A DNA stretch of 25,156 nt, from contig JAUXBC010000001.1 of the NCBI GenBank assembly GCA_030619615.1, forward strand, positions 1-25,156, in the 5' to 3' direction. Shown here one piece after another: positions 14,618 to 19,480 of this stretch. Numbering within the stretch: position 1 is the first letter of the stretch; each line of letters opens with the position of its first letter. Below the pieces are notes generated by a model. The model ran no database searches and was not told the DNA's origin. It was given only the letters and a program-made list of their open reading frames with translations. This DNA comes from Dehalococcoidia bacterium (lineage in GTDB: Bacteria > Chloroflexota > Dehalococcoidia > E44-bin15). Made by a program: the position numbers and the translations under genes.

Positions 14618-16524
<1,907 letters not shown>

Positions 16525-16557
16525 TGTTAACCTCCTCTGAAATTTGCTACTGGGTGA

Positions 16558-16584
16558 TTAGCACTCTCATGATGAGAGTGCTAA
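16558..16584. promoter_or_regulatory. CIRCE element (HrcA operator)
   Basis: Exact consensus TTAGCACTC-N9-GAGTGCTAA directly upstream of groS. Confidence 0.97.
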
Positions 16585-16586
16585 TC

Positions 16587-16615
16587 ATATTAGCCTACAT
16601 TGCCCGGCACCGCAA
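16587..16615 (-). promoter_or_regulatory. sigmaA-type promoter of groESL
   Basis: Minus strand TTGCGG (16615-16610), 17 nt, TAATAT (16592-16587), immediately upstream of CIRCE, the canonical arrangement. Confidence 0.65.
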
Positions 16616-16723
16616 GTGAGTATATGGTGTCTTATGGTCAGCGATAGGACTTGAAAGATATTTATACGCCTCAATTAACCCGCTTTTGTCCTTAAACTGG
16701 GCTTTTTCTCCCGAAAACGACCC

Positions 16724-16752
16724 TTGACATTATACACTTTAACGTGTAAAAT
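16724..16752 (+). promoter_or_regulatory. sigma70-type promoter of the XRE regulator gene (predicted leaderless mRNA)
   Basis: TTGACA (16724-16729), 17 nt, TAAAAT (16747-16752). GTG start 6 nt after the -10. Confidence 0.82.
16733..16748. promoter_or_regulatory. Putative operator copy 1, TACAC-N6-GTGTA
   Basis: TACAC-tttaac-GTGTA fills the spacer and overlaps the -10 of the XRE promoter. A second copy lies at 18221-18236. Confidence 0.62.
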
Positions 16753-16758
16753 GAAGGG

Positions 16759-17007
16759 GTGAGGGTGCCAAGGAGAAGGAAGAAGGCGAACTGGGATCGA
16801 GAGGGGATCCGTGCCCTGAGGCGGCATTTGGGGCTCACCCAGCAGGAGCTGGCAGAGGAGCTGGGGACGCGGCAGCAGACCGTTAGCGAGTGGGAGACCG
16901 GGATGTATCGGCCTCGGGGTGCCTCCTCGAGACTGCTCACCATCATTGCGGAGCGGGCTGGCTTTGGCTACGAGGTGGGTTCTGCGGAGGAAGGGGAGAA
17001 GACCTAG
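16759..17007 (+). CDS. XRE/Cro-like helix-turn-helix transcriptional regulator (single domain)
   Basis: IRALRRHLGLTQQELAEELGTRQQTVSEWETGMYRP is a classic HTH_3 motif. Alternative start GTG 16765. Confidence 0.9.
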   Translation: MRVPRRRKKANWDREGIRALRRHLGLTQQELAEELGTRQQTVSEWETGMYRPRGASSRLLTIIAERAGFGYEVGSAEEGEKT

Positions 17008-17051
17008 ATAACGAAGGTGATGGGGGGAGGTGCTGTCTGGAGGGGCTTAGT

Positions 17052-17804
17052 ATGAAAAAAGTTAAAGTAGGCTGCTGTGGCTTCGCCAAGGGAATGAAGC
17101 ATTACTTCCCCCAGTTCAGGCTGGTTGAGGTGCAGAAGACCTTTTATAAGCCCCCGCAGGTGGCTACCGCCCTGAGGTGGCGGCAAGAAGCCCCTGCGGA
17201 CTTTGAATTCGCTATCAAGGCTTGGCAACCGATCACCCACCCCTGCTCCAGTCCTACCTATCGAAAGGCGGGGCTTAACATCCCTCCGGGGAAGGGGGGT
17301 GACTATGGCTTCTTCAAGCCCACCGAGGAGGTGATGGAGGCTTGGCGCAAAACCAGGGAGATCGCTGAGGCACTTCGGGCTAGGGTTATCGTCTTTCAGT
17401 GCCCCCCCAGCTTTAGGGAGGAGGCGCAGAATCTGGAGAATATGAGAAGATTCTTCGGCGCCATAGAGCGAAGATTCCTCTTTGTCTGGGAACATAGGGG
17501 GGAGTGGAGCGAAGGGGTGGTTAAGGCGCTTTGTGAGGAGCTGGAGCTGGTTCACTGCGTTGACCCCATGGAGGGGGAGCCCCTGTATGGCGAGAGGAGG
17601 TACTTCCGGTTGCACGGGGGGCCTGGCTATGGGCATAAATATAGTGACGGGGAGCTAAAGTGGCTTTGTGATAGATGGGGTGGTGAGGAGGCCTATTTCC
17701 TGTTCAATAACCTGAGTATGTATGAAGATGCCCTCAGGTTTGAGAGGCTGCTCGAGGGGGAAACGGGTGATTTATACCTTGGGAACGAGCAACCGCACCG
17801 CTGA
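17052..17804 (+). CDS. DUF72 (UPF0759/YecE-like) TIM-barrel protein
   Basis: VGCCGF, LVEVQKTFYKPP, FAIKAWQPITH, FQCPPSF, VHCVDP, YFRLHG, YFLFNN. ATG 17052 follows a GGAGGGG SD. The ORF-track extension to 16890 overlaps the XRE gene and is not credible. Confidence 0.85.
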   Translation: MKKVKVGCCGFAKGMKHYFPQFRLVEVQKTFYKPPQVATALRWRQEAPADFEFAIKAWQPITHPCSSPTYRKAGLNIPPGKGGDYGFFKPTEEVMEAWRKTREIAEALRARVIVFQCPPSFREEAQNLENMRRFFGAIERRFLFVWEHRGEWSEGVVKALCEELELVHCVDPMEGEPLYGERRYFRLHGGPGYGHKYSDGELKWLCDRWGGEEAYFLFNNLSMYEDALRFERLLEGETGDLYLGNEQPHR

Positions 17805-18198
17805 GGAGTTTTTGGAGCTACTGAGGAGCCTCGGTGTTGAGGTGGTGGTGGATGTGCGCCGCTTCCCCAGCAGCAGGCTTGACCACTTTAGAAGGGAGGA
17901 GCTCGCCAGGTTACTGGAGGGAGGGGGCTTTGGATATATCTATCTCGGGGAGGAGCTAGGGGGATACCGCAGGGGGGGATATCAGTCTTATCTGGACACC
18001 GAGGATTTCAGGGAAGGGCTTGAGCGGCTGGAGGGATTGGCCCGAGGGAGGAGGGCGGTCCTTCTCTGCGCCGAGCGCCTCCCTTGGCGCTGCCACAGAA
18101 GGTTCATCGGCTGGGAGCTGGAGAGGGATGGCTTTAGGGTGATCCATATCATAGACGAAAAGAGGGAGTGGGTGCCAAAGGCCAGGCAGAGGGGGTGA
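17767..18198 (+). CDS. DUF488 family protein
   Basis: IYTLGTSNRTAEEFLELL, VVDVRRFPSSR, YLGEELGGYR, LLCAERLPWRCHRRFI. GTG 17767 with GAGGGG SD; overlaps the DUF72 3' end by 38 nt. Confidence 0.85.
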   Translation: MIYTLGTSNRTAEEFLELLRSLGVEVVVDVRRFPSSRLDHFRREELARLLEGGGFGYIYLGEELGGYRRGGYQSYLDTEDFREGLERLEGLARGRRAVLLCAERLPWRCHRRFIGWELERDGFRVIHIIDEKREWVPKARQRG

Positions 18199-18220
18199 GG
18201 GGTCTTTTTTTGTCCAGCGA

Positions 18221-18236
18221 TACACGAAATCGTGTA
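18221..18236. promoter_or_regulatory. Putative operator copy 2, TACAC-N6-GTGTA, upstream of DUF2851
   Basis: TACAC-gaaatc-GTGTA in the 52-bp intergenic gap. The shared context ATACAC-N5-CGTGTAAAA is identical to copy 1. Confidence 0.6.
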
Positions 18237-18250
18237 AAAGGGATGGGTCA

Positions 18251-19480
18251 GTGAAGGAATACCTTTTAGCTCGGGTTTGGCGTAGTCAGATGTTAAGGGG
18301 GAGGGAGCTTTTCACCGTTGGTGGAGGGCGGCTCCAGGTGATCCACCCGGGGAGGGCAAACAGTGAAGGTGGCCCGGACTTTCATCATGCCATCATCGAC
18401 ATGAAGGGGAGCGGACTGCTTAGGGGGGATGTCGAGATTCATACTATGTCCAGCCAATGGCGCATCCATGGGCACCACCAAGACCCTGGCTACAATGGGG
18501 TGATCCTCCATGTGGTGATGTGGCATGATAAAGAGAGGCCTACGGTTCTTCAAAGCGGCAAAACCGTGCCCGTTCTCCCGTTAAGCCCCTATCTGGAGCT
18601 CACCCCAGAGGGGATGGAACGCTTCTCCTCCCCTCTCGCTGGCTATGATGAGCCTTGCCATGATTTGAGGGCACGCCTTGGCGATGGGGCAATGGGGGAG
18701 TTGCTCGATAAAGCGGGGGAGGAGAGATTTCGGTCAAAGGCCGCTTTCTTCCAAGAGGAGCTAGCTATTAAGGAGGGGGACCAGGTTCTTTATGAGGGGC
18801 TGATGAGGGCTTTAGGCTATAGTAAGAATAAGGAGCCCTTTGAGGAGCTTGCCCGTCGCTTGCCATTAAGGGTTTTGAAAGGGATCGCCCAGAGGGAGAC
18901 CGCGGAAAGGCGCGGACCATTGCTCCAGAGGGCGCTCTTGGAGGCAGCAGGGCTATCTCCTCCTTCTTTGGGGGTCATCAACCCGATGAGGGAGGCTGAA
19001 TGGCACCTCTCCGGGGTTCGCCCTTGCAATATGCCGCAGCTGCGTATTGCAGGGGCGGCTTATCTGCTCGCCCGATATCTGGAAAGAGGGCTTGTCGAGG
19101 GGGTGCTCCGGCTTGTCGCGGAGGCAGATGCGGAGAGGGGGCATGGGAGGCTGGAGCAGGGGGTGATCACCAGAGGCTCGAAGGGCACCCTGATCGGGCG
19201 AGGAAGGGCCAGAGAGATCGTGGTGAATGTCCTTCTCCCCTTCTCCTTTGCCTGGGCTGAGAGGGCAGCGCAGGGGGAGCTGAGCAATCACGGCCTCGAG
19301 CTTTATAGAAACTACCCCAGGCTTGAGGAAAACCAGATAACGAGGGAGATGTCGAGGCAGCTTTTCGGTGAACAGTGCTCGAAGGTGGTGAGATCGGCGC
19401 AGCGCCAGCAGGGGCTGATTCACCTCTATAAGAGCCTCTGCCTGGAGGGGAGATGCCCGCAGTGTCCGCTAGGGGACTAG
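18251..19480 (+). CDS. DUF2851 family protein
   Basis: IHPGRANSEGGPDF, GDVEIH, WRIHGHHQDPGYNGVILHVV, ALGYSKNKEPF, IVVNVLLP, QQGLIHLYKSLC...CPQC match my recollection of this family. Confidence 0.75.
   Translation: MKEYLLARVWRSQMLRGRELFTVGGGRLQVIHPGRANSEGGPDFHHAIIDMKGSGLLRGDVEIHTMSSQWRIHGHHQDPGYNGVILHVVMWHDKERPTVLQSGKTVPVLPLSPYLELTPEGMERFSSPLAGYDEPCHDLRARLGDGAMGELLDKAGEERFRSKAAFFQEELAIKEGDQVLYEGLMRALGYSKNKEPFEELARRLPLRVLKGIAQRETAERRGPLLQRALLEAAGLSPPSLGVINPMREAEWHLSGVRPCNMPQLRIAGAAYLLARYLERGLVEGVLRLVAEADAERGHGRLEQGVITRGSKGTLIGRGRAREIVVNVLLPFSFAWAERAAQGELSNHGLELYRNYPRLEENQITREMSRQLFGEQCSKVVRSAQRQQGLIHLYKSLCLEGRCPQCPLGD

Follow-up and report, generated by a model that had tools for sequence, protein, structure and literature searches.

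The repressor of phage 434 recognises a 14-bp operator, ACAA-N6-TTGT. In the complexes of this repressor, A-C-A is read by Q28 and Q29 and the fourth base pair by Q33, while R43 is placed in the minor groove at the operator centre; the cI gene, when transcribed from PRM, is autoregulated and gives a leaderless transcript. The present analysis concerns a small protein of the XRE family, here simply called XRE, and the DNA sites that accompany it on a 25,156-nucleotide stretch (the window in the following) comprising positions 1 to 25,156 of contig JAUXBC010000001.1 from Dehalococcoidia bacterium (assembly GCA_030619615.1), a genome bin of 721,724 bp in 82 contigs that is 64% complete. The palindrome TACAC-N6-GTGTA precedes both the XRE gene and a gene of the DUF2851 family further downstream. 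Based on the comparison of related loci, it is quite probable that XRE binds this palindrome and, by occluding the promoters, represses both its own leaderless operon and DUF2851.

XRE matches the Pfam family HTH_3 (PF01381) over residues 17-54 with 44.7 bits, the cut-off being 23 (E 1.4e-11). All matches of the 82-residue protein are of the helix-turn-helix (HTH) type, and it contains no cysteine. Its structural model has helices at residues 14-24, 28-35, 39-47 and 54-66, with a predicted local distance difference test score (pLDDT) around 90 in the core, and it matches many XRE structures with a Foldseek probability of 1.00, the closest folds being C.Kpn2I, HigA2, CapH, P22 c2, the C-domain of MqsA and 434 Cro (all 1.00). 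The recognition helix is GTRQQTVSEWETG (residues 36-48). By sequence, the best natural match in the PDB is the N-domain of the 434 repressor (1r63/1per, E 5e-4), on which phmmer aligns XRE residues 17-53, with gtrqqtvsewetg lying on gttqqsieqleng. In this alignment Q39Q40 fall on Q28Q29, E44 on Q33 and P52-R53 on P42-R43, and the K/Y-RPR loop is aligned as well. The operators are likewise comparable, both being 14-bp dyads that start from A-C-A, have G or T at position 5 and a 4-bp centre, and overlap a promoter. The fourth base, however, is C in all of the 101 sites of the operator consensus described below, unlike in the 434 operator, and the position of Q33 is occupied by glutamate (E44). 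A change from ACAA with Gln to ACAC with Glu would be a coherent specificity swap relative to 434. Furthermore, XRE lacks the C-terminal oligomerisation and RecA-sensitive domain of 434 CI, and it has neither tandem operators like OR1-3 nor a prophage context; its place on the chromosome, between groES and tsaD, is fixed. The likeness to 434 proposed in the sequence-only reading, the reading that first pointed out the two sites, therefore stands as far as the sequence is concerned (the aligned QQ helix and the 14-bp geometry), whereas in fold XRE resembles restriction-modification controller proteins and the HTH domains of HigA2 and MqsA no less than it resembles 434. XRE is a stand-alone XRE domain with a presumed 434 Cro/repressor-like way of working, outside the CI, MqsA and DdrO families.

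In this genome the two sites occur within the 20-mers ATACAC-TTTAA-CGTGTAAAA (16732-16751) and ATACAC-GAAAT-CGTGTAAAA (18220-18239). Their coordinates had been given correctly, while 16 of the 20 positions are common to both and not 15. The dyads within them, here called operators O1 and O2, are indeed both intergenic, and when one mismatch was allowed they were the only matches to TACAC-N6-GTGTA in the window, compared with 0.07 expected; none of 100 shuffled sequences contained two or more. Elsewhere in the bin there is no further exact copy. As had been suggested, O1 sits between the -35 and -10 elements of the XRE promoter, TTGACA-17-TAAAAT, which with 11 of 12 consensus matches was the sole sigma-70-like promoter found by a promoter scan of 16400-18400, and O2 lies just upstream of DUF2851. 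The right half-site of O2 is overlapped by a -10-like TAAAAG (18235-18240); the best -35-like sequence there is TTGTCC (18210-18215), at 19-bp spacing, and a T run also lies ahead of O2.

The conservation of the operator was assessed with a panel of 41 class-level genomes and with a species-level set consisting of the best 80 of at least 589 loci, taken with one genome per species (494,666 bp) by scanning for the peptide RQQT[IV]SEW. The relatives of the locus are Dehalococcoidia and other metagenome-assembled genomes of Chloroflexota, and a sequence search matched the locus sequence in metagenomes from marine sediments, hydrothermal vents and the subsurface. Of the 41 class-level relatives, 21 have an XRE orthologue, with 54-95% identity. 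Exact ACAC-N6-GTGT was found between a TTGAC-like -35 and the -10 of the XRE orthologue in 19 of the 20 loci fetched, and at the species level in 57 of the 80 XRE promoters, so the expected recurrence of the motif upstream of orthologous XRE genes was borne out. Altogether the 80 loci contain 102 exact sites compared with 6.6 in shuffled sequences (maximum 11). Besides the 57 in XRE promoters there are 44 in the gap that directly follows XRE, and a single site elsewhere. The logo of the 57 promoters has the same -35/17 bp/-10 layout as the promoter here, and that of the 44 downstream sites likewise gives TTGAC at the normal 17-bp spacing. Both classes share one frame, in which the -35 is followed by 4 nt and the operator, and the -10 overlaps the last two operator bases. 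The consensus of 101 sites is T-ACAC-(G/T)-N-W-A-N-C-GTGT-A, with C at position 10 in 96 of them. At the flanks, T(-1) and A(+1) are each retained by 92 of the 101 sites, which shows that TACAC-N6-GTGTA was the right choice of dyad. In the protein, R38, Q39, Q40, T41, S43, W45 and E46 of the recognition helix RQQT(I/V)SEWE are invariant in 19 orthologues, and the pairing of an invariant helix with invariant ACAC/GTGT arms supports the match between XRE and the operator. Of 59 species-level loci, 22 have a site in the interval between XRE and DUF2851. The XRE-operator pair occurs in no fewer than 589 genomes at the species level and, with this bin counted, in 32 of the 301 Chloroflexota genomes that were sampled evenly; it was not found in nine mostly single-contig genomes of 1.4-1.9 Mb from one sampled Dehalococcoidia family, which may be cultured strains of the Dehalococcoides type.

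Some loci depart from the common pattern. In one genus, represented by G023 and G010 (L004:430-480 and L005:250-300), the site on the DUF2851 side is degenerate, ACGC...GCGT-like in one genome and harder to recognise in the other, and a truncated DUF72 gene is found there between XRE and DUF2851, which suggests that the insert and the second operator are decaying. The XRE orthologue of G037 (L018:1501-1740) has an in-frame TAG while both operators are intact; this may reflect a pseudogene, a sequencing error or read-through.

The occurrence of the motif follows XRE rather than DUF2851. The conserved core of the locus consists of groEL-groES, XRE, DUF2851 and tsaD, and DUF72 and DUF488 are optional inserts, DUF72 being located between XRE and DUF2851 in a minority of loci only. 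Exact sites precede DUF2851 in G012, G009, G037, G039, G001, G005, G004, G007 and G021; in the last three DUF2851 is 11-12 kb away from XRE, yet it is still preceded by one or two exact sites. Where DUF2851 occurs in genomes without an XRE orthologue, none of the four cases has a preceding site. Both genes are present in 19 of the 41 related genomes, XRE only in 2, DUF2851 only in 4 and neither in 16, a distribution from which the two genes appear to have been gained and lost together. The reverse situation is seen in the Anaerolineae-type genomes, which have no DUF2851 but have two sites downstream of XRE, before a conserved 56-aa open reading frame (ORF); elsewhere in these genomes (3.5-5.3 Mb, five scanned) the strict motif is absent. 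A reading of the motif as nothing more than a promoter element was considered and discarded, as it is a symmetric dyad and the second Anaerolineae-type copy stands outside any -35/-10 frame.

The arrangement in the Anaerolineae-labelled loci (L038:3740-4045; also L061, L065, L072, L080, L103 and L110) is of some interest in itself. The XRE promoter has no operator there, and downstream of XRE there is a TTGACA-17-TATAAT promoter with an operator in its spacer, then a GC hairpin followed by a T run, with the pairing kept by compensatory changes, then the second operator and finally the conserved ORF of 56-58 aa (MGTYGLEGVI.AWE..LT.EQAIGQ.LLLL). The hairpin region could be an attenuator or a small RNA ahead of a micro-protein. 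The 56-aa ORF had no Pfam match, was unrelated to DUF2851 in a profile comparison and was not found in the present genome.

The circuit is a local one, with two promoters here and up to three or four operators in relatives, and not a global regulon. In five near-complete relatives ACAC(G/T)N4(C/A)GTGT occurs 11 times, with 1-4 strict sites per genome; nine belong to promoters of XRE or DUF2851, another falls within an ORF and the last stands ahead of a DNA methylase gene in G016. Two sites each were counted in this bin and in its sister genome, which is 93% complete. Repair or replication genes had been put forward as targets that a genome-wide scan might reveal, but none of recA, the uvr genes or replication genes was found to carry a TACAC-N6-GTGTA-type site in the five near-complete relatives or in the five Anaerolineae-type genomes. 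The G016 site, ACACGAAACCGTGT, is exact (L029:1501-1514; G016:C76:3945-3958) and is followed after about 30 nt by an N6/N4 DNA methylase gene, itself downstream of a gene for a HerA/DUF87 ATPase. The site is a rare additional member of the regulon or else a chance match.

In the mechanism that we propose, XRE, a small repressor of the Cro/434 type, would bind T-ACAC-(G/T)-N4-C-GTGT-A, presumably as a dimer. Bound at O1, in the spacer and -10 of its own strong promoter, it would shut off its own mRNA, which here probably also carries the passengers DUF72 and DUF488, and from the equivalent place before DUF2851 the protein bound at O2 would keep that gene repressed rather than activate it. The bases may be read as in 434, Q39 and Q40 contacting A-C-A and E44 the fourth base pair, while R53 would enter the minor groove at the centre. 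The XRE mRNA is most likely leaderless, judging from the distance between the promoter and the start codon: in 49 of 56 orthologous XRE promoters the -10 is followed after 5-9 nt (mode 6) by the first in-frame start codon, and in this genome GTG 16759 lies 6 nt past TAAAAT. Since XRE has no sensor or cleavage domain, we favour induction by loss of the repressor, through turnover or an unlinked partner, or else a homeostatic dampening of a potentially harmful DNA-processing enzyme. The autorepression and control of DUF2851 put forward in the sequence-only reading thus receive support from phylogenetic footprinting and from co-occurrence with XRE. Control of groES by XRE was also considered and dropped, as the likely groES promoter and its CIRCE element are, by eye, more than 100 bp from O1 and have no site.

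Several observations weigh against this mechanism. The promoter at O2 has, in this genome, either a poor -35 or 19-bp spacing, which makes its strength and its occlusion less certain. Autoregulation together with separate control of DUF2851 is not universal, because 23 of the 80 orthologous XRE promoters (about a quarter) have no exact site and 37 of the 59 DUF2851-linked loci have no separate second site. The related genomes are not independent samples, and this weighs on all the conservation counts. The 434-style assignment of residues to bases is carried over from the 434 structures (Anderson/Aggarwal/Harrison), and none of the RNA runs that were searched for the locus sequence contained it.

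The product of DUF2851, the second gene under the proposed control, gave a confident model (pLDDT 92.7), and its orthologues are 30-66% identical across the class. When residues 140-409 were compared with VIA-align, the matches included AGOG (Z 9.6), EndoIII (8.7), AlkA (8.5), Nth (8.0), MutY and OGG1, and the top 22 matches comprised 19 HhH DNA glycosylases, two DUF2419 queuine-salvage enzymes and one phage glycinyltransferase; at these Z values, 5.7-9.6, chance matches between helical folds can occur. With residues 1-120 the matches were PD-(D/E)xK nucleases, namely NucS (Z 5.6), Can1, VRR-NUC and FokI. A Foldseek search of the whole model against the PDB gave nothing significant. D43, D60, E62, H64, H73, H75 and D78 are conserved, a GRGRA hairpin occupies residues 316-320, and four cysteines (136, 397, 402 and 405), which could hold Zn or an Fe-S cluster, are nearly invariant; these features would fit a metal-dependent DNA enzyme. 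As the Z values are moderate and Foldseek found no significant match, the description of DUF2851 as a PD-(D/E)xK-like domain fused to an HhH glycosylase-like domain is a lead given by the models and not a classification.

The proteins that resemble XRE most closely in fold suggest other explanations, in particular that the locus is a selfish or defence module in which XRE acts as the controller of a restriction-modification (R-M) system or as a type II antitoxin, holding down and perhaps binding a toxic nuclease, DUF2851. The R-M controller C.Kpn2I is the best structural match of XRE (TM score 0.64-0.70, root mean square deviation 1.4 Å, 32-33% identity) and is matched by sequence too (4yba, 7e-4). 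R-M controllers are, like XRE, small stand-alone HTH proteins that act through palindromes on their own gene and on a downstream nuclease-type gene, and the N-domain of DUF2851 does resemble nucleases. The patchy presence or joint loss of XRE and DUF2851 within one family and the extra site before the methylase gene of G016, which is at another locus, point in the same direction. However, R-M controllers adjoin methyltransferase and restriction enzyme genes, whereas the neighbours of XRE are groES, DUF72, DUF488, DUF2851 and tsaD, and no gene of a methylase or toxin family is adjacent in the window. The controllers also use a pair of activating and repressing C-boxes upstream of the -35, in contrast to the operator of XRE inside the spacer, which implies pure repression. 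The pair has kept its position between groES and tsaD despite class-level divergence, and since this single chromosomal position is kept, the locus, unlike those of the controllers, looks vertically inherited rather than mobile. For the antitoxins the situation is similar. The best NCBIfam match of XRE is the MqsA family (TIGR03830; residues 5-65, E 4.3e-12), with which it shares the HTH and the long last helix (E-W-E-x-G-x-Y-x-P-R-G-x-S-x-x-L-L), and its fold matches both HigA2 and the MqsA C-domain, antitoxins that also autoregulate through promoter palindromes. Nevertheless, the score of 45.9 bits is below the hidden Markov model cut-off of 61.8, only model positions 58-118 are matched, and XRE has neither the N-terminal CxxC...CxxC zinc finger nor a neighbouring MqsR or HigB toxin gene. 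Its partner is instead a large, enzyme-like two-domain protein of 409 aa that occurs also without XRE. A selfish or defence module is thus unlikely. The sequence-only reading had raised the possibility of a LexA-independent stress regulon of the DdrO/IrrE kind, in which a protease or anti-repressor would inactivate XRE after damage and DNA-processing genes would be turned on. DdrO of Deinococcus is, like XRE, an XRE-family repressor without a self-cleavage domain, and it is among the distant fold matches. A repressor without a sensor makes a trans-acting inactivator plausible, the nuclease-like and glycosylase-like folds of DUF2851 would suit such a role, and DUF72, DUF488 and a macro-like domain in G038 (by eye) would fit nucleic-acid or ADP-ribose chemistry. 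But DdrO controls a multi-gene repair regulon through a different motif (to our knowledge the XRE operator is unrelated to the radiation/desiccation response motif, RDRM, of Deinococcus), and here, but for the site inside an ORF and the one in G016, the sites stand only at the module's own promoters in the ten genomes scanned for repair and replication targets. LexA, moreover, scores above its family cut-off in 32 of 41 relatives, the sister genome included, and a metalloprotease of the M78/IrrE type (COG2856; PF06114) was not found in this 64%-complete bin or beside the module in the loci examined. With so small a regulon, LexA present and no such protease found, the only feature of XRE that speaks for the DdrO/IrrE model is its lack of a sensor or cleavage domain, and we regard this explanation as quite improbable.

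Two further explanations concern the sites themselves. XRE might activate at O2 by binding an over-long 19-bp spacer and realigning the -35 and -10 elements like regulators of the MerR type. In this genome and in close relatives the DUF2851 promoter does have TTG(T/G)nn 19 bp from a -10-like TAAAAG or TAAGAC. In the logo of the 44 downstream sites, however, the spacing is normal, O1 belongs to a promoter with optimal 17-bp spacing from which bound protein should exclude RNA polymerase, and XRE proteins are not known to act by promoter realignment, so activation is very improbable. The half-sites might also be DnaA boxes or the site of another unlinked factor, with the adjacency of XRE being a coincidence, as the sequence-only reading itself had allowed: TTATACACT and TTTTACACG are each one mismatch from TTWTNCACA. 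This was rejected and has next to no probability. The position of the invariant final A is G in 67, T in 33, C in 1 and A in none of 101 sites. Conservation extends to both arms of the dyad and to the length of its 4-bp centre, but not to the TT prefix. The motif is missing before DUF2851 in genomes without XRE, 101 of the 102 sites adjoin XRE, and the motif co-varies with XRE and not with a universal protein. Repression of its own operon and of DUF2851 by XRE therefore remains our preferred explanation.

The features of the locus are collected in the table below; Pfam backed the earlier gene calls of HTH_3, DUF72, DUF488 and DUF2851. The groES-groEL operon is divergent on one flank, on the minus strand and with a perfect CIRCE element before groES, and tsaD is convergent on the other flank. 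CIRCE is kept beside groES in relatives, and the divergent groES-XRE arrangement is kept in roughly 40% of related loci (about 33 of 80). DUF72, which is probably co-transcribed with XRE, travels together with DUF488 as the optional insert between XRE and DUF2851, and elsewhere this place is taken by a gene for a macro-like domain (by eye), by a CoA-binding/acyl-CoA synthetase-like gene or by a membrane protein. GTG 17767 is the likely start of DUF488, because its orthologues begin a few codons ahead of VIYTLGTS; depending on this start, the two reading frames overlap by 38-83 nt (17722-17804). Scans of 16400-18400 gave no credible Rfam match and no terminator.

Table. Features of the XRE locus, with positions in the window
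Feature	Position	Strand	Basis and remarks
XRE promoter: -35 TTGACA 16724-16729, 17-bp spacer, -10 TAAAAT 16747-16752	16724..16752	+	11/12 consensus matches
Operator O1, TACACTTTAACGTGTA	16733..16748		Fills XRE promoter spacer; right half-site overlaps -10
XRE-family HTH repressor gene, 82 aa	16759..17007	+	Pfam HTH_3 1.4e-11; GTG start 6 nt past -10
DUF72 gene, variable passenger	17052..17804	+	Pfam DUF72 1.2e-32
DUF488 gene, variable passenger	17722..18198 (longest ORF)	+	Pfam DUF488 5.3e-23; overlaps DUF72 end
Operator O2, TACACGAAATCGTGTA, perfect 7-2-7 palindrome	18221..18236		Ends 14 nt ahead of DUF2851 GTG
DUF2851 gene, 409 aa, conserved target	18251..19480	+	Pfam 4.3e-52; GTG start 18251
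CIRCE element TTAGCACTC-N9-GAGTGCTAA of divergent groES-groEL operon	16558..16584		Read directly; outside XRE circuit

An autoregulated XRE repressor acting on a promoter-embedded palindrome is a textbook mechanism. A literature search covering DUF2851, DUF488/DUF72, Dehalococcoidia with XRE and groES, and the 434 contacts gave nothing relevant, and the XRE-operator pair was not found in it. A wider role, which we regard as doubtful, would be that of a dedicated switch, widespread among Chloroflexota, for a hitherto unrecognised DNA-surveillance enzyme, DUF2851, with its nuclease and HhH domains and four-Cys site, and with DUF72, DUF488 or the macro-like protein as plug-in passengers. The circuit would then respond to DNA damage or modification independently of LexA, and the signal would act on the sensor-less repressor by a mechanism not yet described. 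The XRE-operator pair provides a clean and tractable system for a phylum with almost no characterised regulators, and it would offer a naturally occurring variant of the code by which 434 recognises DNA, with the specificity altered from ACAA/Gln to ACAC/Glu. It may also give a regulatory handle on DUF2851, DUF72 and DUF488, families without known function that all resemble nucleic-acid enzymes.

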